IMG/VR virus record: IMGVR_UViG_2929701070_000001
Coordinates: 1 to 64,000 of that record
DNA length: 64,000 nt
Source: a virus
Lineage: Duplodnaviria > Caudoviricetes
Strand: one strand, 5' to 3'
In this document: one piece after another, positions 32,717-51,365 of the stretch
Layout of the letters: every line of letters begins with the position of its first letter
How positions within the stretch are numbered: position 1 is the first letter of the stretch
The notes under the pieces: generated by a model
Told to the model about the DNA's origin: nothing
The model's database searches: none
Seen by the model: only the letters and a program-made list of their open reading frames with translations
Made by a program: the position numbers and the translations under genes

Positions 32717-32890
32717 ATGAGTGGGTTCTCATTCGGTGCGGTGTTTGGCGACGGCGGTGTCCGCCGTGGCGACAAAACGCTGCGATGCCCGTGCGGCAAT
32801 GAAACCGATTGGCTGCGCATGGTCAGCGACTCGGAGAAGACCGAGGCAATGTGCGGCGAGTGCGGCCAAACCGTCACGGTTCGCGACTAA
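32717..32890 (+). CDS. small zinc-ribbon protein
   Basis: CPCG ... CGECG. Confidence 0.55.
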   Translation: MSGFSFGAVFGDGGVRRGDKTLRCPCGNETDWLRMVSDSEKTEAMCGECGQTVTVRD

Positions 32891-32915
32891 CAGATCGAAG
32901 AAGAAGGAGGACGCC

Positions 32916-35354
32916 GTGGCAGTGACGACGCACCGGCCGGCGCCGCTGCCCACCAGCGGCCCCGCAGCCAAGCCCGCCCCCACGCCGGTGCCGGTGGGGG
33001 CGGCGAAGATGCAGACCTGGTACATCGACCCGACCGACGACCGGCGCAAGCGCATGCCGTACCCGGTGCCGGTCGACGCCGACGACCACCTGACCGCGCA
33101 CGTGCGGCACCAGTGCTCGAAGATGCGCAACCTCAACGGCGGCGGCAAAGAACGCTGCACCGAGTTCGCGTGGATGCTGCCTGGGGAGGAGCAGTTCTGC
33201 CAGCGGCACGGCGAGAAGCTGACGCCGCCGCCGTCGAAGCGCACCCGCCTTGCCGCTGTGGTGGGGGAGGCGAAGCGGCTGCACAGCGACTCGGCCGCCC
33301 CGTGGGCGCTGCCTGCCCTGGCCGCCGCCGCCGACACCGCCGCGCACCTCGCCCTGGTGTCGCCGACCGGGACGCTGCTGGCCGCGCCCGCCGCCGCCGG
33401 CGTCACCTACCTGCTGCGCAAGCGCACCCTCACCAAGCGTGCGGTGGCACGTAACCGCATCGAGATGGGCCAGCGCACCGGCAAGCGGGTGCGCGCCATC
33501 GCCCGCCAGGCGCGACGCGACGCGGCCGTCGCCGCCGAGACCGGACTGTGGGCCACCGCTCTCACCGCCACCGACCTCGCCACCTGGCCGGGCCGGATCG
33601 TCGCCGCTGCCGGCATGGTCCGCTGGGCCGTCGGCATGCGCGGCTGGTGGGTCGCCGCCGAAGAACGCCGCGCCCAGCCGCCCGCGCCCGCACCTGTGCA
33701 GGTCACCCCAGCCGACGACGTCAAGCCGGTCGACAACCCCGACCCGGTGCGGCTGCGTGCCGTCACCACGTGGACGATGCTCATAGGCTGCGCCGGCGGG
33801 CCGCTCGCCGGCACCGAACTGGTCGACTACCAGCAGATGCCCGCCTGCGAGGTGGGCGCGCACTCCCGCACCCGGCTGCCGAACTGGACGGCGAAGGTCG
33901 TCGCGAAGATCCCCGGCTCCATCAACATGCGCGAGTCCCGCCCCAACCTGCTCGGCCGGATCGCCGCCGCCTACGGCTGCACCTACGCCGACGTGTCGTT
34001 CAACGCCGACGAGTCCGACCTGTCCATCGGCTGGCTGCGGGTACAGCCGGACAACCTGCTCGCCGAAACGAAAATCTGGCCGGGACCGAAGGCCGCGAAC
34101 GACTGGCGGCGCGGCCGGTCCCGCATCGGCCGGTTCGATGACGGCCGCGACATCTGGTACCAGTGGTGGACGAAGCAGGGTGCCGCCCACGACCTGATCT
34201 CCGGGTGCACCGGCTCCGGCAAGTCCGAGCTCGTCGCGCAGCTGCTGCTCGCGTCCCTGCACTCCGACGGTCTCGTGCTCGACTGGGTGGGTGACCCGCA
34301 GGGCGGGCAGTCGTACGGGCAGTTGAAAAACGCCGTCGACTGGTTCGCCCGCGACACCTCCGAGATCAAGCTGATGCTGCTGGCGGCGTTGAAGGAAATG
34401 CTGCGCCGCAACGACGAACTGTCAGCGAACAACATCAAGACGTGGCAGCCCACCCGGGCGATGCCGCTGCTGGTCATCACCCTGGACGAAGTCCAGTCGT
34501 ACATCGATGACCCGATCATCCTGGAACTGGTGGAGAAGCTGGTCGGGATGGGCCGCAAATGCGGCATCAAGATGCGGCTGATTACCCAGATTCCCGCCGC
34601 CTACAACCTGGGCGGCTCCACCTACATCAAGGAGCAGTTGAAGGCTGGTCAGACGCTGATCTTCCGGGCGATGACTGACATCGCCGGCCGGTCCGCTGTC
34701 GACGGCGACTGCCCGGTCGACCCGACCGAGCTGCCGTCGGTCTGGGGTGCGAACACGTGCGCGGCTGGTGAGACCACCGCCGGGCTGATGTTCGTGCAGG
34801 GCGTCAACGGCCGTGACGTGTATGGCCGCGCCGACTTCACCGGCGAGGACATGGGGGTGTGGCTGGTCGACGGGGAAGGCCAGTCGACGCTGACGCCGGG
34901 GGTGTTCGGGCCGGAGGCGCAGCAGGAGTCGGGGCCGCTGTGGGGCGACCGGAAGGAACGGGCCGCGCTGCTGCTCGCCGCGGGTCGCTCCGACGCGGAC
35001 CTGCTGTCCGGCGGCAAGGCCCTCGAACTGCTGGAGGCCGCCGCGGTTACGCAGGTCACCCCGCAGGCGCTACGCGAGCCGGCGCCGCCGTCGCCCGAGG
35101 CGCAGCGCAACGCGCGCGTGTCCCGGGAGGTGGTGCTGGAGGCCGCGACCAAGGCCGCGAACGACCGCGGCCTGGTCACGAAGGACCAACTCATCGCGCA
35201 GCTCGCCGGGATGGCGGAGCAGATGAAAGACGGCACCCGCGACAAGGCCCTCACCGATCTTGTGGCGGACGGGAAGCTGCGCCGGGTCAAGAACGGCCTG
35301 TACGAGGTGCCTGGGTTGGCGGCCACCCTGTTCGACGCGGGAGCGGCCCGGTGA
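32916..35354 (+). CDS. traB: FtsK/SpoIIIE-family DNA translocase, TraB-like
   Basis: N-terminal hydrophobic segments, Walker A GCTGSGKS, Walker B VITLDEVQ, GRKCGI..LITQ, C-terminal wHTH (LVADGKLRRVKNGLY). Confidence 0.85.
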   Translation: MAVTTHRPAPLPTSGPAAKPAPTPVPVGAAKMQTWYIDPTDDRRKRMPYPVPVDADDHLTAHVRHQCSKMRNLNGGGKERCTEFAWMLPGEEQFCQRHGEKLTPPPSKRTRLAAVVGEAKRLHSDSAAPWALPALAAAADTAAHLALVSPTGTLLAAPAAAGVTYLLRKRTLTKRAVARNRIEMGQRTGKRVRAIARQARRDAAVAAETGLWATALTATDLATWPGRIVAAAGMVRWAVGMRGWWVAAEERRAQPPAPAPVQVTPADDVKPVDNPDPVRLRAVTTWTMLIGCAGGPLAGTELVDYQQMPACEVGAHSRTRLPNWTAKVVAKIPGSINMRESRPNLLGRIAAAYGCTYADVSFNADESDLSIGWLRVQPDNLLAETKIWPGPKAANDWRRGRSRIGRFDDGRDIWYQWWTKQGAAHDLISGCTGSGKSELVAQLLLASLHSDGLVLDWVGDPQGGQSYGQLKNAVDWFARDTSEIKLMLLAALKEMLRRNDELSANNIKTWQPTRAMPLLVITLDEVQSYIDDPIILELVEKLVGMGRKCGIKMRLITQIPAAYNLGGSTYIKEQLKAGQTLIFRAMTDIAGRSAVDGDCPVDPTELPSVWGANTCAAGETTAGLMFVQGVNGRDVYGRADFTGEDMGVWLVDGEGQSTLTPGVFGPEAQQESGPLWGDRKERAALLLAAGRSDADLLSGGKALELLEAAAVTQVTPQALREPAPPSPEAQRNARVSREVVLEAATKAANDRGLVTKDQLIAQLAGMAEQMKDGTRDKALTDLVADGKLRRVKNGLYEVPGLAATLFDAGAAR

Positions 35355-36313: not shown

Positions 36314-36508
36314 ATGACCGTGAACATCGCATCCGACGGGGACCGGGCGGCCGTGCAGGTCGGTTATGTGGGCGGCAGCAGTGAGCGCCGTGAGCGTGCC
36401 GAGGTGCCGCCGGAGCCCGGCGACGTGCAGGTGGAGAACATCCGCGAGGGCAACGCTCGTGTCGGCATGCAGGCTGACGTGATCGTGGGGGACCTGCGTA
36501 TCGGTTAG
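36314..36508 (+). CDS. small repeat protein
   Basis: GAGGAG SD; two NI..G...V.Q repeats. Confidence 0.65.
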   Translation: MTVNIASDGDRAAVQVGYVGGSSERRERAEVPPEPGDVQVENIREGNARVGMQADVIVGDLRIG

Positions 36509-36701
36509 CCTCCCGCTTGTGGAGGTTGAGCATCCGCTGCGGCCCGGGGTGACGGTCATCGTGACACGTCACCTCGGGCCGTACCGTGTGGCGCTGCGCG
36601 GCGAGATGAGCCTCGCCGAGGCGGCGCAGCGGTCAGCCGTTCTGGACCGGCTCGCGGCCGGGGTTGAGGACGAGTCGTTCCCGGATGCCAACCCACCATC
36701 C

Positions 36702-36730
36702 TTGTGCTTCCTAAAATAGGAAGCTATGGT
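36702..36730 (+). promoter_or_regulatory. promoter with palindromic operator in spacer
   Basis: TTGTGC-17-TATGGT; GCTTCCTA-AAA-TAGGAAGC at 36706-36724. Confidence 0.8.
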
Positions 36731-36782
36731 GTGGGTGTCAGGTCAGGGGAACAGCCCCAGATCCCACCGGAAGGAACCGGCC

Positions 36783-37088
36783 ATGACCAAGTTTGTTGCT
36801 GCCCTCGCCAACGCCTCCGACGTTGTCTCCGGCGACTACTGCGACGTCAGCGTCATCGAAAGTGAAATCGTCAGCTACCGGGAGGGCCGCGACGGCAACG
36901 ACGTCCCCGAGTACGGCCTGACCGACAAGTTGGCAATGGATGCGGTGGACACCAACGTCCGCACCGACGGCGACATCAAGGCCGCCCTCGCCGACGCCGA
37001 CCGCGTTCTTCGCGATAACGGATGGAACCGCAGCGGCGACTGGGAGCCCAGCCAGAACGCCTACTACGCCGAGGTCGAGCGCGCCTAG
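36783..37088 (+). CDS. small acidic protein, candidate anti-CRISPR / anti-defence
   Basis: 101 aa, Asp/Glu-rich, between operator-promoter and Aca2-like gene. Confidence 0.75.
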   Translation: MTKFVAALANASDVVSGDYCDVSVIESEIVSYREGRDGNDVPEYGLTDKLAMDAVDTNVRTDGDIKAALADADRVLRDNGWNRSGDWEPSQNAYYAEVERA

Positions 37089-37159
37089 TTTCCACCTCCC
37101 CCCTGACGGCGCGGCCCCGACCACCCCGGGGTCCGCGCCGCACCTCTTGGAGTCGCACC

Positions 37160-37588
37160 GTGACCACCTACACCGACCCGCCCAACATGCCCGAGGACGA
37201 ACGCATGACCGACGCCGAGTTCCGGGTCGTCCGCGAATACCTCGGCCTCACCGGCGACTGGCTCGCCGGGCACCTCGGGGTGTCCGCCCGAACCGTTCGC
37301 CATTGGGAGCAGGGCAAGTACCCGATCCCCGACGGGGTGCGCCTCGCCATCGAAAGCCTGGAAGCTGAGACCACCGCTTTCGTTGGGGCCGTGGTCGAGA
37401 ACCTGCTCGCCAGCAACGACACAGACCTGGCGGTGGTCACCTACCGCAGCGACGCCGACTACCGGGCGGCGCACCCGCAGCTTGACTGGCCGGCGTCGTG
37501 GCACCGCGCGGTCATCGCACGCGTAGCCCAGGAGGTGTTGGGGCTCGCAATCGTCTACGCGTCCAGCACGGCGGGGGATCCGTCATGA
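37160..37588 (+). CDS. DUF1870 / Aca2-like HTH regulator
   Basis: MTDAEFRVVREYLGLT...GVSARTVRHWEQGKYPIPDGV plus YRSDADY...W...WHRAVIAR C-domain. Confidence 0.8.
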   Translation: MTTYTDPPNMPEDERMTDAEFRVVREYLGLTGDWLAGHLGVSARTVRHWEQGKYPIPDGVRLAIESLEAETTAFVGAVVENLLASNDTDLAVVTYRSDADYRAAHPQLDWPASWHRAVIARVAQEVLGLAIVYASSTAGDPS

Positions 37589-38016
37589 CCGGCGTGGGCG
37601 ACCAGGGAACCGCCGATCGGATCGCCCACTACCACCACGGGCTCGCCGACTGGCTACCCGACAGATGCGAGCACATCGGCCAAGGTTCGCAGCGGACCGT
37701 GTACGTCGACCACAACACCGGCACCGTCTACAAGATGGGCGACGACGGGGCGAACCGGCAGGAGGTATGTACGCTAGCCGAGCTGCGCGCCCGGGGAGTT
37801 GACCATGCTCCCCGCGCGACCCTTCACGAGGTGACCGTCCCCGACGGGTACGGCGACACGATCGCCTGCACGGTGGTGGCGATGCCCTACCTGCCCGACG
37901 ACGGCAGCGTGCCGCGCCCGTACCCGATCCTGGAAGGTGCGGCGGATTTCAACCCGAACGGCAACGTCCACGCCAACGGCGGGCAGCTCTGGCTGATCGA
38001 CGCTGGCGGTCTGTGA
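37585..38016 (+). CDS. minimal protein-kinase-like protein
   Basis: IGQGSQRTVY, VYK, NRQE, DFNPNGNV, LIDAG. Confidence 0.65.
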   Translation: MTGVGDQGTADRIAHYHHGLADWLPDRCEHIGQGSQRTVYVDHNTGTVYKMGDDGANRQEVCTLAELRARGVDHAPRATLHEVTVPDGYGDTIACTVVAMPYLPDDGSVPRPYPILEGAADFNPNGNVHANGGQLWLIDAGGL

Positions 38017-38054
38017 CCTAGACACGCATCCGCTACACGAGCTCCCCAGACACG

Positions 38055-38086
38055 GTGAAGGCCCGGCGGGCAGGCCGGGCCTTCAC
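38055..38086. terminator. hairpin terminator
   Basis: GTGAAGGCCCGGC ... GCCGGGCCTTCAC. Confidence 0.7.
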
Positions 38087-38211
38087 TACGTCGCAACGTC
38101 TCCCAATTCTAGCAGCGCACGAACACGCCGAGTACGGTCGATGTGACCGGCTGGCGTTTGGGCAGGAACGGTCGGCACCACAATCCACCCCTCGGGCAGG
38201 AGGGCACCACC

Positions 38212-39414
38212 ATGGCACGCACCGACTACATCGGCCTACGGGTCGCCCGCTGGCGTGACATCGCCGGCCTCACCCAGTTGGAGCTAGCCGACCGCGTCGG
38301 ATACTCCCGCGAGTACATCTCAATGATCGAAAACGGTTCGCGGATCGTCACCAAACGGTCCCTCCTCATCGCACTCGCCACCGCCCTCGGAGTGAGCGTG
38401 AACGACCTCACCGGCCAACCCGACCGGCCCCGATCCCGCGACGAACTCGCCGTCTACTCCGCCGTACCCAACCTGCGCGGCGCCCTCGATGACGAACCCG
38501 ACACCCTCCACCCCCTACACGTCGACCAGCTCACTGCTGGCGTCGACCAGGCGATGCGCGCCCGCATGATGTGCGACTACCCGGCCCTCGCCCGAATCCT
38601 GCCCAGCCTCATCGCCGACACCCGCCGCCTCGCCGACAGCGACAACCCCGCCGGCCTCGCCCTGTTCGTGCGTGCCGCCGTGTGCGCCGCGCTAACCATC
38701 AAACCGTTCGGCTACGTCGACCTGTCCGCCCGGCTGTCCGAACGCGCCGAACTCGCCGCACGCCTACTCGACCGGCCCGTCGAGCTCGCCGCCGCCCGCT
38801 TCGCCGCCGCGCAAACCGCCCTGTCATCCGGGACCTCCGGCGGGCAACGCCGCTCCCTGCACACCGCCGCGACCGCCGCCGCGCAACTCGGCGACAGCGG
38901 CGGCGACGACCACCTCAGCTGGTACGGCATGCTGCACCTGCACGCCGCACTGTCCGCCGCGTCCCTCGGCCGCACCACCGACGTAGCCACCCACCTCGCC
39001 GAAGCGGAGGCAACGGCGACACGCACCACCTCCGACCCGTGGCGCATGGAGTGGAGCCCCGCCAACGTGGCTGTGTGGCGGGTTGGTGTGGCCGTCGAGA
39101 ACGGCGAACCGGAGCGGGCACCCGAGTACGCGCGCCGTGTCGACCGCACCCAGCTGCGCACCGCCAACCGGCTCGCCCGCCTCCACATCGACGCTGGCCG
39201 CGGCCACTACGCGGCAGGGGAGCCCGAGCAGGCGGTGCGCCGATTCCTGGCCGCCGACGAAGTGTCCGGCCCGGAACTGCGGTCCCGCACGACAGTGCGC
39301 GAAATCGTCGCCCAGCTGGTGCGCGACGCCCGCCGCGGCGGCTCCGACGAACTGCGTGACCTCGCCGTGCGCATGGGTGTCGACCCCCTCGACCCCGACC
39401 ACCACCAGGTGTAA
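38212..39414 (+). CDS. XRE-family HTH regulator with helical-repeat C-terminus
   Basis: AGLTQLELADRVGYSREYISMIENG; actinobacterial 400-aa XRE type. Confidence 0.9.
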   Translation: MARTDYIGLRVARWRDIAGLTQLELADRVGYSREYISMIENGSRIVTKRSLLIALATALGVSVNDLTGQPDRPRSRDELAVYSAVPNLRGALDDEPDTLHPLHVDQLTAGVDQAMRARMMCDYPALARILPSLIADTRRLADSDNPAGLALFVRAAVCAALTIKPFGYVDLSARLSERAELAARLLDRPVELAAARFAAAQTALSSGTSGGQRRSLHTAATAAAQLGDSGGDDHLSWYGMLHLHAALSAASLGRTTDVATHLAEAEATATRTTSDPWRMEWSPANVAVWRVGVAVENGEPERAPEYARRVDRTQLRTANRLARLHIDAGRGHYAAGEPEQAVRRFLAADEVSGPELRSRTTVREIVAQLVRDARRGGSDELRDLAVRMGVDPLDPDHHQV

Positions 39415-40232: not shown

Positions 40233-40456
40233 CGACCGACCAGCGCCCGCTCGGCCAGTGGTTCAAGTCGAGCAAGTCCGGCCCGAACTGCGACAACTGC
40301 GTGGAGGTGCAGTTCCTCGACGGCGGTGTGGTGCAGACCCGCGACAGCAAGAACCCCGGCGGTGCCGTGCACACGTGGCGGCCGGGTGAGTGGGACGCGT
40401 TCATCGCGGGCGCGAAGTCCGGCGAGTTCGACCGTCCGTCCGCCAGCACCATCTGA
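40229..40456 (+). CDS. DUF397 domain protein
   Basis: WFKSSKS...NCVEV...RDSK..G....W.AFIAGAK.GEFD. Confidence 0.92.
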   Translation: MTTDQRPLGQWFKSSKSGPNCDNCVEVQFLDGGVVQTRDSKNPGGAVHTWRPGEWDAFIAGAKSGEFDRPSASTI

Positions 40457-41959: not shown

Positions 41960-43957
41960 TTAGGCCGCACGCCGGCGGGCGGCGAGCAGGTCAGCGAACA
42001 CGTCCAGCGGCGCGACCGGGGCCGCCTTCGGCTCGGTGACAACGGCGGGCGGCGGGGCGACATCGGGCGTCGGCTCCGGCTCGGCCGGGTGGGTGCGCTC
42101 GGCGCCGTCGGCGGCGAGTAGCGCGGCATACGCGGCCAGGTACGCGGCGGCTTTCTCCTCGTACGCGCCCGGGTGCCGGTCGGTGAAGTCGGCACCCACG
42201 TAGTCATCCGGGACGCCGCAGACCCGCCGCCTGGCGATGCTCATACGCTGTGTGCGTGCCTTCTGGTTTCGCTTGTTCGTGTCCGCGATGCAGGAGGCGA
42301 CGAGCCTTTCCCACCGCTCGACGGCCGTCGTCTCCGGCTGCACCTCAACGACCGTCTCCGGCTCGGTGACGGGTCCGGGTGCGTTGACCGGCTCGGCTGC
42401 CTCTGCGGCAGGCTCCGGCATGCTTTCCGGCTCGGTGGGGGAGGCCGGCAACTCGGCGCGGTGCACGGCCAGCGGCTGCCACGGCTTGAACTCCCGCCGC
42501 GTGCCGTCGGCCAGGATGACCGCCCACCACCCGATGAACCGCTCCCCGGAGTAGTCGGGCCCGTCGTGGGGGATCACCTCGGCGACCGGGCCGCAGAACC
42601 CGCGCAGCAGCCGTTCGCCCATGCCAGCGAAACCCCGATCCCACCACCCGGCGACGATGTCGCCCGGCTGCACGTCCCGAACGTGCAGCCGCTCCGGCTC
42701 ACCCTCCGGCATCGTCCACGCGGGTTCCACCTCCGGCATGGCCGGCAGGCTGGCCCGGATGTCCGGCACCAACTCCCCGGCGGTCAGCCGGTCGAAGATG
42801 TCCACATAGGCGGCGGCCAACGCTCGGCGGGTGTCGGTGTCGTCGGGGTGCGGCTGGAACGCCTCCACCTCCGACCGCGCGGCGCCCAGGTCCAACCCGT
42901 GGGCGATGCGCTGCGCCCACCGCACGTGCTGCGCCTCACGCCGCGACGCGTCGTCGTGCCCGTCACGGTCGATCCACCGGGCCAAGTCCTCCCAGCGGGC
43001 CACCTTGCGCGCCAGGTCGACGGGCCACGCCTCGCCGTTCGGTGTGTCGAGCTGCATGCCGTCGCGCCGCCGGCCGCCGAGGTCGTCCCACGGCACGGTA
43101 TCCGTCCACGACCACGGCTGACCGTCGGCACCGTTCGGCTGCCCCAGCCCGATCAGCGGCGGCACACTGACGCTCTTACGGTTGACCCGGACTACCGGAT
43201 ACCAGACGCCGCGCACGTTCACCAAGTCACCCTTGCGGAAGTGCTCCGGCCCCCACGGCACGAACTCGCCCGACTCGGCCAACTTCCCCAGCTCTGCCCG
43301 CCAGTGCTCAATTTCCTCGGTCAGCCGTGCCACCTTGCTGGCGGCGCGCTCCCCGTAGTCGCGCTCCAACTTCCGCCGCTCCACCTCCAACCGTTCGATA
43401 CGCCGCATGGTCACCCGGGGATCCTGCCGGTGGGCCAGGTTGTGTCCGACCGCCTCGGCGCGGTGGGACAACTCGCGCGCCTTGTCGGCCGCCTCCCATG
43501 ACTTCTGGGTGTGGGCGTGGATCTTCTCGAACGCCCGCCGGTGCTTCCGCTCGGAGTGGTGCCCGATCTTGATGGGCTCCCCGAAAGGCATGTGGTCGCT
43601 GATCGCGTCGGCGGCGGCCCGCCGCGCCGACGACTCGGCGGCGGCCTTCCCGGCACGCTCGGCGTACCGGTCGGCCCGCCGGTCGGCGCGCTCGGCGCGG
43701 TCGGCTTCCCGCTCGGCAGTGGTGCGGGGGGTGTTGTCGATGTTCACGGTCACGTCGTGTCCGGCGTCGCGCAGTGCGTCGGCGGTGCGGTTGATGCGGG
43801 CGCGGTTGGCGTCCTTGTCGCGGCTCTGCCGGAGGTAGATGCCGACGTGCCGGCTGAAAGCCCAACCGTTGGCCTTGCAGATTTCCCATACGCCGTCACC
43901 CTTGCGAGATCCGGCGAGGGTGGTGCCGTCGGCGTGGGTGTGGGTGATGGTGAGCAC
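41960..43957 (-). CDS. DUF3560-domain multidomain protein
   Basis: R.ER...Y.ERA ... MPFGEPIKIGHHSERKHRR signature; FRKGDLV..RG.WYPVVRVNRKSV. Confidence 0.85.
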   Translation of the reverse strand: MLTITHTHADGTTLAGSRKGDGVWEICKANGWAFSRHVGIYLRQSRDKDANRARINRTADALRDAGHDVTVNIDNTPRTTAEREADRAERADRRADRYAERAGKAAAESSARRAAADAISDHMPFGEPIKIGHHSERKHRRAFEKIHAHTQKSWEAADKARELSHRAEAVGHNLAHRQDPRVTMRRIERLEVERRKLERDYGERAASKVARLTEEIEHWRAELGKLAESGEFVPWGPEHFRKGDLVNVRGVWYPVVRVNRKSVSVPPLIGLGQPNGADGQPWSWTDTVPWDDLGGRRRDGMQLDTPNGEAWPVDLARKVARWEDLARWIDRDGHDDASRREAQHVRWAQRIAHGLDLGAARSEVEAFQPHPDDTDTRRALAAAYVDIFDRLTAGELVPDIRASLPAMPEVEPAWTMPEGEPERLHVRDVQPGDIVAGWWDRGFAGMGERLLRGFCGPVAEVIPHDGPDYSGERFIGWWAVILADGTRREFKPWQPLAVHRAELPASPTEPESMPEPAAEAAEPVNAPGPVTEPETVVEVQPETTAVERWERLVASCIADTNKRNQKARTQRMSIARRRVCGVPDDYVGADFTDRHPGAYEEKAAAYLAAYAALLAADGAERTHPAEPEPTPDVAPPPAVVTEPKAAPVAPLDVFADLLAARRRAA

Positions 43958-43975
43958 TATTCCCCCTAGAATCTC

Positions 43976-44023
43976 TGCCCGTACTCTACGGGCAATGTTA
44001 CGGGATGGGTTGACCTGGCACAA
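43976..44023 (-). promoter_or_regulatory. promoter with downstream inverted repeat
   Basis: minus strand TTGTGC-17-TAACAT; TGCCCGTA-CTC-TACGGGCA; 15-mer shared with 48015-48029. Confidence 0.7.
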
Positions 44024-44063
44024 CCGGCCAGCCCGACACCGCGCCGGGCTGGCCGACCGTCCA

Positions 44064-44780
44064 CTACCGACGCGCCGCCAGCAGGTCGGCGAACACGCCC
44101 GCCGCCGTCTCGGCCGCCGGCTCCGTCGCCGGCTCGCCCACCTCGCCGGGCTCGGCAAGCCGCCAGTGCGGCGCGGACAGGATCACCGACCCCCGGTCCG
44201 TCTCGGCGATCAGCCCGCCCGGCTGCACCCCGTGCACGGTCGCCGACACCGCGGGCGAGTCGCACACCCACACCTGCCCGACCTCCGGTGCCGGGGTGGT
44301 GTCGGGGCGCATGCTCTCCGGCCCCACGTAGGCGGGCCCGAGGGCGGCCCGGTTCACCGTGTACACCACGTCGCCGTCGGGCGCGTGGGTCACCTCGGCG
44401 ACAACGCCGGCCGACTCGGTGCCCTGCCACCCCCACCGCACACCCACCCGGTCGCCAACCGCGTACGCGTCGGCGGATCCGTACCCGCCCGGCTCGGCCA
44501 GCTCGGCGACCGGCTCCGGCTCGGCGGCGGCCCTGATCAGGTCACGCTCGGCGCGGGCGGCGGCGTCCCGGTTCGGGAACGTCGGCGCCTGCTCGAACGG
44601 GCGCGAATCGCACACGATCCGCCATTTGCGGTCGGGGTAATTGCGGCTGACGCACCCGGACGCGCCGGACGGATACCGGACGTTGGTCACGTACCACCCG
44701 CCGTGACGCCACGGCGAGTAGGTCGGCTCCCAATCGTCGGCGGCGTCGGCGGGGGTGTGGGTGTGGGCGGTGCTGGCCAT
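44064..44780 (-). CDS. multidomain hypothetical protein
   Basis: AGGAGG SD after AC-rich leader; ends VFADLLAARR. Confidence 0.8.
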   Translation of the reverse strand: MASTAHTHTPADAADDWEPTYSPWRHGGWYVTNVRYPSGASGCVSRNYPDRKWRIVCDSRPFEQAPTFPNRDAAARAERDLIRAAAEPEPVAELAEPGGYGSADAYAVGDRVGVRWGWQGTESAGVVAEVTHAPDGDVVYTVNRAALGPAYVGPESMRPDTTPAPEVGQVWVCDSPAVSATVHGVQPGGLIAETDRGSVILSAPHWRLAEPGEVGEPATEPAAETAAGVFADLLAARR

Positions 44781-48151: not shown

Positions 48152-50974
48152 CTACACGCCGGCAGCCACCCCGGCAGGCGTGAAACCGCGCGCCGCCAAC
48201 TGATCGGCCACAATCGCCCACACCTGCGGCAGATCGGAGGCGGCAACACGGTCCGGCGTGACCGTCACCCGCTTAGCCTTACGGTCCGGCACAATCGACA
48301 CCTGCCCCACCTTGACGCCGGCGTCACGCATGAGCTGCGCCACCTGCGGCCGTACCGCCTTGAGAACCGACCACAGCGGCATGCCCGCCGGGTACACCCA
48401 CACCGGCACCGGCACACCGTCCACCGACGCCAGCTCGGCGACCGGACCCGGCGCCGGGGCGGGCGACACCGGCACCGGCATGTCATCCGCCGCCCACCCG
48501 GCCACCACCTCCGCCGCCGTGTCCGGCACAGGCCGCGCCTCCGTGTGCTGCGCCCGCCACTGACCGGCGTTCACCCGCCCGTGGGTGGCAAACCACTCCC
48601 GCAATTCCTCCGACGCATACAGCTCCACCCGCGACGCCGGGCCGGACCACAGCGACCGGGGGTCGATACCGGCAGCCTCCCCGGCCGCCGTGAGCATGTG
48701 CCCCCGACAGTCAGTCTCGGCCTGCTTGAACCACACGCCCACCATGTCGGCGTAGTCGCGTCGCAGGATGGCTGCCCGCGACGGGCGCGGCGTACGGGCG
48801 GCAGCCTCGGCGGCAGCGGCAGCCTCGGCGGCTTCCCGGTCCTGCGCACGGTCGCACGCGTCGGCGATCCCGTAAAGGGTGTCCCCGTCGTCGGGGTCAA
48901 CGTCCGCCATGACGGCCAGCGCCACGGCCAGCGCGTCACTGTCGACCGTGTCCAGACCGGCCCACAGGTCGACCGGCTCGGCGGTGTTGGCGTCGACCAC
49001 GGCAACGGGCAGCGTCGCCCCGGCCTCCGGCGTCGGGTCGGCCTCCGGCTCCGGCTCGGCGGTCAAGTCCACGCGACGCGCGACCGCCACCAACACACCG
49101 CCAACGGTCACGCCGTAATCCGGGTCCGCCTCGGCCTCCGCCTCCGGCTCCGGTTGGGTCGGGGTCGGCTCGGCCTCTACCTGGGCGACCGGCCCGGCGG
49201 CCGTCGGCTCGGTCAGCGCGTCGGCAGTGATGTTGCCCAAACCATCGATCATGCCGAGGTCACCCCAGTTGCGGCGGGCCGCCGCGCGCGTGTCAGCGCA
49301 CGCGAACAGTTGACCCTGTACCGCCTCCGGCTCCGGCTCGGCGACCGACACGGGCGCACGGTCAGCGACACTCGGCGCGTCCACGGGGAACGCCTCCGCC
49401 TCCCCGTCGGTGGTCAGCTGGACGACGTCCGGCACCGCCTCGGCGACGGGCCCGGCCTCCGGCTCCGGCAGTGCGGGCAGTTTGTCGAACACGTCCCACG
49501 GGGCGTGCGCCTTCCCGCAGTAGCACACGAACTGAGGCGACCGGCACACGTTGTCGCCAATCACGGCAAGCCGCACCGTGTAGTCAGGCGCAAACCGGGT
49601 GTACGTGCCGCCGTTGAAAATCCAATGCCCATCCGCCCCGGCGTGTCGGCCGGACCGTTGAACGGTGCCGAGGTGTCCGCCGCCGGTCAGCACCCACACG
49701 CCCGGCCGGATAGCGTCCGGCACAGGCACCCGCGCGGCGACCGGCTCGGCGGGGGTCGGCTCGGCACCCGCCAGCACGTCCGGCGACACGTCGCACGGCT
49801 CGGCCTGGCCGTCCCCTCCCGCGACCGGCTCGGGCTCGGCCATGGGCAGAGCGGCCAGCATGTCCGACCACCCGTACACCGCGCCCGACGCGCCCGTCTC
49901 CCGGTAGCCGGGGGCGACGCGCTGCCCGTCCGCCACGGCCTGCCGCGCGCCGTCCATGTCACCAGCGGCGTACGCGTCCAACGCACGCGCCATGATCTCG
50001 GCAGCCGGGTCAACCGTTTCCGGCTCCGGCGCGGCGTCGGTCGTGGCCGGATCGACGGTGACAGCCTCCGGCTCGGCAATGATCGGCAGATAGTAGGCGT
50101 AAAAGCCACCGAACGCCGGAGACTCCGCACGATCGAACCGGTACGGACGACCGAACGCACGCGACACAAGCGCGGCATCCGGGCGGGCACCCTTGACCGA
50201 CACTCGGCCCGTTTCCAGGCTGTACCGCACCCGCACCCGGTCCGACCCGCGCAGGTTCCCCGCACGGCGCGCGGTCTGCGTCAACGACCGGCACGCACGG
50301 TCAACGTCCACGATCGGCGTGACCGGCTCGGCCACGGTCTCCGGCTCGGCGTCCGGGGTCACCTCGGCCACCGGCTCGGCGTCACGCCGGACGGCGTACC
50401 GGTCAGCGTCACCGTCGACCGGGGTCAAGATGTCTTCCGACACCGACCGGGACCCGTAACCCGGCAGGGTGAGCCGGTAGTTACGGAGCGCGTACTCACC
50501 ACCGGGGTACGCGTCACACACAGCCTCCACCGTCGCCGTGAGGTATTCGGCGTAACCGGACGTGACTCGCACCTCGGTACCGACCGGGTACGCCGTACGG
50601 AAGTTGACCCCCGTCGGGCACGTGACGCACACCGCCACGGGCTGACCGTCCGCACCGTCGGTGATCTCGGCCTTCCCGTACATGTTCACGCCGCATCGGG
50701 CGCACATGACACGGTGAAAGTCGATCTCTTCCCGTAGTGCGGTGACAGCCTCGGCGCGGACAACGTCGGCAGGCTTGCTGCGGGCGGAAAGTTTCGCGTT
50801 CACGGTTACCCGCTTCCCGCAGTATCCCCATTCGGTGCCATCGGACAGCTTGATCAGGGTGAATGACAACTTGCCGTAGAACTTGCTACCGAGGTGCGAC
50901 ACGTTGCGCACGCTGGTCACCCGGAACTCTTCACCCCGTACGGTCACGTGGTCGCCCATGCTCTGCGGTGCCAT
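48152..50974 (-). CDS. large multidomain (polyvalent-like) protein, 940 aa
   Basis: small domains joined by Glu/Pro/Ala linkers; AGIDPRSLWSGP...YASEELREW module. Confidence 0.8.
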   Translation of the reverse strand: MAPQSMGDHVTVRGEEFRVTSVRNVSHLGSKFYGKLSFTLIKLSDGTEWGYCGKRVTVNAKLSARSKPADVVRAEAVTALREEIDFHRVMCARCGVNMYGKAEITDGADGQPVAVCVTCPTGVNFRTAYPVGTEVRVTSGYAEYLTATVEAVCDAYPGGEYALRNYRLTLPGYGSRSVSEDILTPVDGDADRYAVRRDAEPVAEVTPDAEPETVAEPVTPIVDVDRACRSLTQTARRAGNLRGSDRVRVRYSLETGRVSVKGARPDAALVSRAFGRPYRFDRAESPAFGGFYAYYLPIIAEPEAVTVDPATTDAAPEPETVDPAAEIMARALDAYAAGDMDGARQAVADGQRVAPGYRETGASGAVYGWSDMLAALPMAEPEPVAGGDGQAEPCDVSPDVLAGAEPTPAEPVAARVPVPDAIRPGVWVLTGGGHLGTVQRSGRHAGADGHWIFNGGTYTRFAPDYTVRLAVIGDNVCRSPQFVCYCGKAHAPWDVFDKLPALPEPEAGPVAEAVPDVVQLTTDGEAEAFPVDAPSVADRAPVSVAEPEPEAVQGQLFACADTRAAARRNWGDLGMIDGLGNITADALTEPTAAGPVAQVEAEPTPTQPEPEAEAEADPDYGVTVGGVLVAVARRVDLTAEPEPEADPTPEAGATLPVAVVDANTAEPVDLWAGLDTVDSDALAVALAVMADVDPDDGDTLYGIADACDRAQDREAAEAAAAAEAAARTPRPSRAAILRRDYADMVGVWFKQAETDCRGHMLTAAGEAAGIDPRSLWSGPASRVELYASEELREWFATHGRVNAGQWRAQHTEARPVPDTAAEVVAGWAADDMPVPVSPAPAPGPVAELASVDGVPVPVWVYPAGMPLWSVLKAVRPQVAQLMRDAGVKVGQVSIVPDRKAKRVTVTPDRVAASDLPQVWAIVADQLAARGFTPAGVAAGV

Positions 50975-51089
50975 GATCCTGCTACCTCCGGTCGGTTGGT
51001 GCGGTCGGTTGGTTGGTGTGGTTGGTTGCTCCGAGGATTGCCACGCATGCCCGACCCCCGTCGGGCACCATGGGTGACCTCGGAACGGG

Positions 51090-51365
51090 TCACACGGTGT
51101 GGGGCCGCTCGGCGAGTAGTGCGTTAACCCGGTCGGTTACAGCGTTCACCAGCCGCCATCCGGCGGGATCGGACGGGTCTTCCGGAAGGTCGGTCCCCCA
51201 CGGCACCTCCTGCACGTACTCGTTCGCGTCCACGTAGTCATGCAGGTCGGTGAACGTGCGAACGGTGGCGGGCACCTCCCCGTTCTTTATGCTGGCCAGG
51301 ATGTCGGCGTAAACGGCCTGCGCGACGCCTTCAACGTCGTACGTGTTGGGATCGATCGTGACCAT
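51090..51365 (-). CDS. small acidic protein
   Basis: GGAGG SD; FTDLHDYVDANEY. Confidence 0.75.
   Translation of the reverse strand: MVTIDPNTYDVEGVAQAVYADILASIKNGEVPATVRTFTDLHDYVDANEYVQEVPWGTDLPEDPSDPAGWRLVNAVTDRVNALLAERPHTV

Follow-up and report, generated by a model that had tools for sequence, protein, structure and literature searches.

What does a short operon headed by one very acidic protein do for the mobile DNA that carries it? The question is raised by positions 36,702 to 38,086 of the 64,000-nucleotide (nt) stretch analysed here (the window; positions 1 to 64,000 of IMG/VR record IMGVR_UViG_2929701070_000001), where a promoter, a palindrome and a structured 5' leader precede three genes: orfA for a small acidic protein that we call the cargo, orfB for a helix-turn-helix (HTH) protein, and orfC for a minimal kinase-like protein. 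A preliminary description, made from the sequence of the window, had proposed an anti-CRISPR operon governed by an Aca2-like repressor. The explanation of the whole towards which we lean is an Aca2-type self-limiting cassette on a mobile island, with a cargo that would aid establishment by inhibiting host defence. The argument draws on the following features of the cassette.

36702-36707, + strand: -35 hexamer, TTGTGC; its position is kept in 38 aligned cassettes (defined below), with CTTGCG or CTTGTG in relatives
36706-36724, no strand: putative operator, a perfect 8+3+8 palindrome, GCTTCCTA (36706-36713), AAA, TAGGAAGC (36717-36724), occupying the promoter spacer
36725-36730, + strand: -10 hexamer, TATGGT (TAnnnT); its T, A and last T never vary in 37-38 aligned cassettes
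36741-36763 (core 36746-36758), + strand: leader hairpin 1, GGUC-A-GGGG / AACAG / CCCC-A-GAUC
36767-36780, + strand: leader hairpin 2, CCGG-AAGGAA-CCGG, with the Shine-Dalgarno element in its loop, 2 nt before the ATG
36783-37088, + strand: orfA, 101-amino-acid (aa) acidic cargo of an unnamed family, isoelectric point (pI) 4.2, net charge -11
37107-37140, + strand: intergenic GC-rich hairpin between the orfA stop and the orfB ribosome site, -34.1 kcal/mol, z score -3.1
37160-37588, + strand: orfB, 142-aa HTH repressor of the Aca2/YdiL family; GTG start with GGAG 7 nt upstream
37585-38016, + strand: orfC, 143-aa minimal protein-kinase-like protein; its ATG overlaps the orfB stop (ATGA, 4 nt)
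38054-38087, + strand: operon terminator hairpin, 14-bp stem, -34.8 kcal/mol, z score -4.55, matched by 0 of 200 shuffles

Judged by its sequence, OrfB belongs to the Aca2/YdiL (DUF1870) family, as the preliminary description had supposed. It matches the Pfam family Aca2_YdiL (PF08965, formerly DUF1870) with 29.2 bits, above the cut-off of 23.8 (a search of the genome gave 29.1 bits), the profile match spanning positions 1-93 of 118, and its top four sequence matches in the Protein Data Bank (PDB) are all Aca2 (8w35, 7vjo, 7b5j and 7ezy; E values 7.8e-5 to 3.3e-3). HTH_31 (31.7 bits) and phrog_955 (1.8e-12) were also matched, and PADLOC returned just a weak HTH match to RmrA. OrfB shares with the known Aca2/YdiL proteins (PF08965; 7b5j, 7vjo, 8w35, 7ezy and 1s4k) an N-terminal HTH and a conserved W-E-x-G-x-x-x-(I/V)-P segment. 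It differs from them in length (142 aa against about 116-125 aa), having a longer C-terminus and a 15-residue N-terminal extension (TDPPxMPEDER), and its sequence match to the solved Aca2 proteins is weak (E about 1e-4). The OrfB family comprises 702 clusters at E <= 1e-10, the closest 120 of which are 65-85% identical, and most homologues carry PF08965 in their precomputed Pfam annotation. Members are found as "DUF1870 family protein" in 43 NCBI records from plasmids of Streptomyces, Gordonia, Prescottella and others, and also in Streptomyces phage Gilgamesh, Thermobifida phage P1312 and several Mycobacterium phages.

The window is part of a contig of 637 kb in the 7.07-Mb genome of a soil actinomycete of Micromonosporaceae kind, and in that genome OrfB is the sole PF08965 match. 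The 17-nt core of the operator likewise occurs once in the 7.07 Mb; within the window, the palindrome occurs once against 0.03 expected, even when up to three mismatches are allowed. One repressor gene and one operator in the genome therefore make a closed circuit. Taken with the family assignment, this anatomy makes an Aca2-type autoregulated cassette highly probable.

The promoter, perfect palindrome, two leader hairpins, 101-aa acidic gene and terminator of the preliminary description were each recovered, at the same positions, when the sequence was read again, the terminator also by its folding energy. The two hexamers are separated by a 17-nt spacer. The + strand promoter has just 8/12 consensus matches and for that reason was absent from the consensus scan; the terminator was missed by such a scan because it has no T tract. 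Downstream of the leader, the orfA ATG is at 36783. The tetranucleotide G-G-A-A stands at a comparable place in both hairpins and in each operator half-site (AGGAAG, CGGAAG, GGGAAC), a placement that would fit one recognition surface reading both DNA and RNA.

Is this control region peculiar to the window? The promoter-operator-leader block of about 85 nt is near-unchanged in 37 distinct loci from Micromonosporaceae, Streptomyces, Streptosporangium, plasmids, phage-like contigs and metagenomes. The operator plus hairpin 2 pattern was found at 12 loci in species-representative genomes (Catenuloplanes, two Actinoplanes, Paractinoplanes, two Streptosporangium and six Streptomyces), the palindrome alone at 14 IMG/VR loci, and the palindrome with two added bases at 25 metagenome loci; two Streptomyces plasmids carry the block as well. 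The 37 cassettes are the set that remained after de-duplication and removal of ten palindrome loci (L031, L036, L045, L048, L049, L052, L053, L055, L059 and L061) in which the script saw no GGA[AG]GGA within 95 nt downstream of the palindrome. With the leader of phage Gilgamesh added, 38 cassettes were aligned.

Kept throughout this alignment are the operator arms, the TAnnnT of the -10 hexamer, the stems of both hairpins and the distance to the ATG; the operator centre, about 15 nt after the -10 hexamer and the hairpin loops vary. Six of the eight pairs of the operator arms never change in the 37 cassettes, and it is the 3-nt centre that does. Hairpin 1 keeps its stem around a variable loop (96% of pair cells paired), and the stem of hairpin 2 is invariant in the 37. 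The Actinoplanes relatives (L004/L018 and L005/L019) encode OrfA proteins 45-50% identical to that of the window, yet their operator arms, -10 hexamer and leader are almost letter-identical to it. When Gilgamesh is included, 97.6% of leader pair cells hold standard pairs and four pairs have changed on both sides; none of 500 shuffles reached the observed value, and slid controls were 26-59% paired. Three of the two-sided changes lie in hairpin 1 (GGGG/CCCC to GGGA/UCCC in L021, U-A to G-C in L011, and G-C to A-U in one further sequence, L014), and the fourth, in Gilgamesh, is a compensatory change of hairpin 2 from CCGG/CCGG to CUGG/CCAG. We conclude that the conservation of the block is more than chance.

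Phages carry variant forms of the cassette. That of Streptomyces phage Gilgamesh (gp86-gp87; L064 2029-2115) has the variant operator GCTTCCAAATTTGGAAGC. Thermobifida phage P1312 (L066 1300-1420) combines an imperfect operator with a duplication of hairpin 1 in the leader, and the annotated start of its gene 045 probably lies inside the promoter's -10 hexamer. Mycobacterium phage Typha has an OrfB homologue, and a recognisable version of the leader was not found in it.

How would such a cassette operate? In a cell free of repressor, for example a new recipient, the promoter would fire, and the messenger would yield the acidic OrfA and, by read-through past the intergenic hairpin, OrfB and the coupled OrfC. 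An OrfB dimer would then bind the palindrome that fills the promoter spacer and block transcription, much as the ZF40 phage protein Aca2 represses transcription by way of an inverted repeat that overlaps the promoter, in the account of Feussner et al. (NAR 2026, PMC13551039). By analogy with the ZF40 protein, OrfB would also bind both hairpins of the leader, including the one (hairpin 2) that contains the ribosome-binding site, and would thereby block translation of the cargo; control at the RNA level is probable on this analogy. Cargo synthesis would come as a burst.

The hairpin between orfA and orfB may adjust the proportions of the two products. A stem of at least eight pairs lies at this same place in 26 of 27 loci, in sequences that are unrelated (window, L008, L009, L011-L060); the 27 are the loci with a 54-87-nt intergenic spacer, the exception is L040, and four more loci have other spacings. 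Some Streptomyces loci add a T-rich run after the stem. The element looks like a partial terminator or attenuator, or a 3' stabiliser, which would set a high ratio of cargo to repressor.

What, then, is the cargo? Wherever the sequence runs far enough downstream, which it does in 31 cassettes, the first gene is followed by an OrfB homologue (the remaining six have fewer than 500 nt after the start codon). The survey of genes upstream of HTH homologues that the preliminary description had envisaged revealed a highly variable first position: the 35 first-gene products of at least 30 aa fell into nine BLASTP clusters, with 12, 11, 4 and 3 members and five singletons. The cluster of 12 is the OrfA family, including longer forms that share just its C-terminal half. 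The 11 are 106-111-aa proteins starting around TTSYGTW, for which PADLOC found nothing; the four are 107-108-aa proteins with a GYKxxxxYxADGWY motif; and the three are a basic, HTH_17-like protein of 170 aa, after which more genes intervene before the Aca2-like gene. Acidity is common in this slot, with a pI of 4.4 or below in 31/37 first-gene products (net charge -10 to -39).

The slot families are also found joined to one another. In Thermobifida phage P318, orf41 (L006, 3638-4801; 387 aa) consists of a TTSYGTW module directly followed by an OrfA domain, a build shared by three matches to the OrfA profile (P0033, P0042 and P0061), and these composite sequences indicate that cargo modules recombine. 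Gene 045 of phage P1312 belongs to the OrfA family and precedes an Aca2-like gene, and cargo families are present in true phages, plasmids and islands. A variable small gene ahead of a conserved Aca gene is the pattern used to locate anti-CRISPR and anti-defence genes, and it links the cargo to defence by association. The Aca2-type operon of the preliminary description thus stands in its regulatory half, with the OrfB family, palindrome and two-hairpin leader kept as published, whereas for an anti-CRISPR function it is association that speaks.

Close relatives of OrfA are rare. A search of 5.8 billion proteins yielded seven clusters; OrfA was found in 2/400 other genomes of the same bacterial family, in 0/56 of the same genus and in one phage record, and tblastn against plasmids gave no match. 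A profile built from the seven sequences reached further, to 172 cluster representatives at E <= 1e-3 and 72 at <= 1e-10, and every family member with a source name is actinobacterial. The alignment of the seven, run as a pattern search in genome contigs, gave 123 pattern matches, none of them confirmed. The 87 aligned members had no credible Pfam match, and no paper specifically on the OrfA family or on the actinomycete cassette was found in the literature library searched. Two homologues of 155-158 aa (P0006 and P0007) carry two CxxC pairs in an N-terminal extension that may be a zinc ribbon.

The AlphaFold2 model of OrfA, computed from the family alignment, has a predicted local distance difference test (pLDDT) score of 96 and a predicted template-modelling score (pTM) of 0.84. 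The predicted elements are a sheet of three strands with a long hairpin, a single helix and two further strands. Foldseek against the PDB gave no match at E <= 1e-3, and a profile search of PDB sequences gave nothing meaningful. VIA-align returned, with a best Z of 4.9, the beta-beta-beta-alpha-beta subdomains of actin-like and RNase H-like proteins, a value inside the tool's stated noise range. In the ESM Atlas the matches were unnamed actinobacterial clusters only, with GyrI-like models at a template-modelling (TM) score of 0.48. The fold recurs in a viral model library, in two proteins nameless in its table, of 387 aa (TM 0.83) and 137 aa (TM 0.81), and the weaker rows there are Streptomyces and Actinoplanes phage proteins.

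We tentatively read the cargo, from its company and by analogy, as an anti-defence or establishment factor. OrfA, one of at least nine unrelated and mainly very acidic slot proteins, would most likely help the element to establish in a new host by inhibiting defence. A shade more tentatively, it could represent a new fold that actinomycete plasmids, integrative elements and phages use to inhibit host defence, for example as a DNA- or protein-mimicking anti-restriction or anti-CRISPR factor made in a short burst on entry through an Aca2 DNA-plus-RNA switch.

Several observations count against this reading. At the level of the leader, the folding energy is unexceptional (z score 0.38), a scan of 36500-38300 against Rfam 15 found no matching family and gave two chance-level rows only, and the covariation is real but thin, because each of the four events is a single sequence. 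The obvious reading of the leader is the published actino-motif, one of two RNA motif variants ("actino-" and "proteo-motifs") defined by Birkholz et al. (Nature 2024), an identity taken from the description in the later paper (PMC13551039). OrfA itself resembles no known anti-defence protein, having no match when Pfam, PHROGs and PADLOC were scanned. The host genome (99.94% complete) contains no Cas1, and a repeat scan of it found no array with more than three regularly spaced repeats. Among 39 longer OrfA-family members scanned for fused domains, P0049 has the OrfA domain followed by a full Aca2_YdiL domain (30.5 bits, above the cut-off). Five more have sub-threshold segments: HTH_31/HTH_3 beside the OrfA domain in P0094, Phd/YefM-like N-termini in P0012, P0019 and P0127, and HTH_17 in P0011. 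Such fusions to DNA-binding domains may mean that the OrfA domain serves in regulation and not as an effector. Finally, the Gilgamesh cassette adjoins a small terminase gene, lying between it and the lysin A gene.

The host data bear most directly on the narrower proposal of the preliminary description, that OrfA is a true anti-CRISPR, in this case against type I CRISPR-Cas systems of actinomycete hosts, with its output limited by Aca2. The cassette does have the architecture of an acr-aca2 operon, with a variable small upstream gene, and many Acr proteins are small and acidic, as OrfA is. With neither Cas1 nor an array found, an Acr would have nothing resident to inhibit in this host, nor is there a self-targeting spacer; a mobile element may find its targets elsewhere, in other hosts. 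OrfA lacks Acr likeness in the family scans and has no clear structural match. In the account of PMC13551039, fewer than half of 450 genes under predicted Aca1 or Aca2 control have an assigned function, with helicases, restriction-modification genes and DNA-modification genes among those listed. As a specific assignment the anti-CRISPR claim found no support other than association, and we now consider it improbable.

The fusions and the neighbours of the cassette bear on another reading, for which the genomic setting is needed. The window is about 70% G+C, and the sources' names for its close homologues are Micromonospora, Salinispora and Verrucosispora. Other features with recognisable products are these.

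32721-35354, upstream of the cassette: TraB/FtsK-like translocase, 877 aa (PF01580, 23.8 bits; FtsK/SpoIIIE-like PHROGs)
38212-39414, downstream of the cassette: XRE-type HTH regulator, 400 aa (phrog_5823, 3e-58)
about 40250-40453, downstream of the cassette: gene for a DUF397 protein
41960-44182, - strand: DUF3560 protein
48152-51136, - strand: 995-aa protein with a phage head-morphogenesis-like segment

Shortly before the cassette, along with the TraB/FtsK-like gene, comes an spd-like gene, an arrangement resembling the neighbours in the Actinoplanes loci L005/L019. The XRE-type regulator and the DUF397 protein form a pair that we take to be typical of actinomycete WhiJ/BldB-like modules. 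The majority of the remaining genes in the window had no match in the family scans, and the 64 kb contain no tRNA genes. The cassette is carried on a large accessory island of conjugative type, since neither the first nor the last 20 kb of the window is syntenic with any of 12 same-genus genomes; the element's boundaries were not found within the 64 kb, and its ends lie outside them.

In this setting OrfA and the other first-gene products might work together with the regulator or in the DNA handling of the element (a co-regulator, an anti-repressor, or a transfer or packaging factor), the cassette being a housekeeping switch. The full Aca2_YdiL domain in P0049 and the weaker segments in five of its relatives are what a partner of the regulator might show, and the position of the cassette, just after the TraB and spd-like genes in the window and in L005/L019 and beside the small terminase gene in Gilgamesh, would suit a factor in DNA handling. 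A specific partner should co-vary with OrfB, and the slot holds nine unrelated clusters while OrfB keeps the 65-85% identity given above for its closest 120 clusters. The fusions are also compatible with a self-regulated effector: inhibitor-repressor (Acr-Aca) fusions exist among anti-CRISPRs, AcrIIA1 and AcrIF24 being examples. We regard the partner role as unlikely and still as a serious rival to a role in anti-defence or establishment, which is the best available reading of the cargo. The N-terminal fusions had also suggested a HicB-like or Phd/YefM-type antitoxin for the OrfA domain; this candidate was rejected, the Phd/YefM matches all being below the Pfam cut-off.

Does the kinase-like gene belong to the same unit? 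OrfC had no Pfam, PDB sequence or PADLOC match. Its AlphaFold2 model (pLDDT 92.7) is closest by Foldseek to OspG (E 7.3e-4, TM 0.44), followed by APH(2'')-Ia, NleH and HopBF1, with a probability of about 1 yet TM scores of just 0.38-0.46. The predicted likeness to OspG, NleH, HopBF1 and APH(2'')-Ia covers the kinase N-lobe with its glycine-rich loop and conserved Lys and Glu, a short C-lobe with conserved Asp and Asn, and a size of about 140-170 aa; OrfC differs from OspG, NleH and HopBF1 in belonging to an actinomycete mobile element and in not being a secreted effector. Conservation is complete at K50, E60 and D139 and at least 90% at D121 and N127, which makes an active small kinase plausible.

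With OrfB, such a kinase could form a HipBA-like toxin-antitoxin or addiction pair that stabilises the island, leaving OrfA incidental. The order of the two genes, HTH then kinase-like with a 4-nt overlap, the invariant residues, and the fold matches to minimal effector kinases and APH would all suit such a pair. The distribution of OrfC argues the other way: it is absent from 29/31 cassettes with downstream DNA and directly follows the Aca2-like gene in the window only, in Catenuloplanes (L011/L068) its place is upstream of the cassette, and in L007 and L067 no Aca2-like gene accompanies it. The third slot elsewhere is filled by a 292-295-aa protein without a Pfam match (L008, L018 and L019; PADLOC found nothing for the 295-aa form), by a helicase (L020), or by nothing. 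HipA, moreover, is a kinase of another type and far larger. We find an addiction pair highly improbable. OrfC is an optional passenger outside the conserved cassette; the mini-kinase named in the preliminary description is upheld as a fold by the model, and its presence in the cassette is not constant.

OrfC has 53 homologues, mainly in Micromonosporaceae, and was found in 2/400 other genomes of the family. One homologue is on a plasmid of Micromonospora zamorensis (NZ_CP107937), where a gene annotated as type I-C Cas7/Csd2 (L007 6405-7259) lies 1 kb downstream of it. That stretch has no other cas gene among its 13 listed features, in a PLSDB gene table that is incomplete.

The locus adds little on regulation, and its value is as a pointer to the nine cargo clusters. 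Across three actinomycete orders, in phages, plasmids and islands, the control block marks a position occupied by small acidic proteins of at least nine families. If OrfA is a new-fold inhibitor of host defence, these clusters would be a ready catalogue of new anti-defence proteins, modular in some cases, for Streptomyces and its relatives. To our knowledge few inhibitors of actinomycete defences have been characterised, and poor DNA uptake limits genetics in these antibiotic producers; cargos that do inhibit defences would be both biologically informative and practically useful.

How does the cassette compare with known systems? As far as the published descriptions extend, it shares with the acrIF8-aca2 operon of Pectobacterium phage ZF40, and with acr-aca2 operons generally, a small cargo gene followed by an Aca2-family HTH gene and an inverted repeat that overlaps the promoter. 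Common to them as well are a pair of conserved hairpins within the 5' untranslated region that occlude the ribosome site and keep their distance to the start codon, and a cargo that differs between loci, with a DEAD/HA helicase downstream in some. Such DEAD/DEAH-HA helicases are described as common downstream of aca2 (PMC13551039), and in L020 the Aca2-like gene is followed by a 769-aa ResIII/HA helicase. The combined control of DNA and RNA is an already published design, and the regulation proposed here is not new in kind because it matches that mechanism. The cassette departs from the known operons in its cargo, which belongs to an unnamed family of predicted role only, and from the ZF40 operon in its carrier, a conjugative-type island of a Micromonospora-like host rather than a phage. 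It also has a coupled kinase-like third gene and a GC-rich hairpin between cargo and repressor genes, and the structural conservation of that hairpin is a previously unreported detail.

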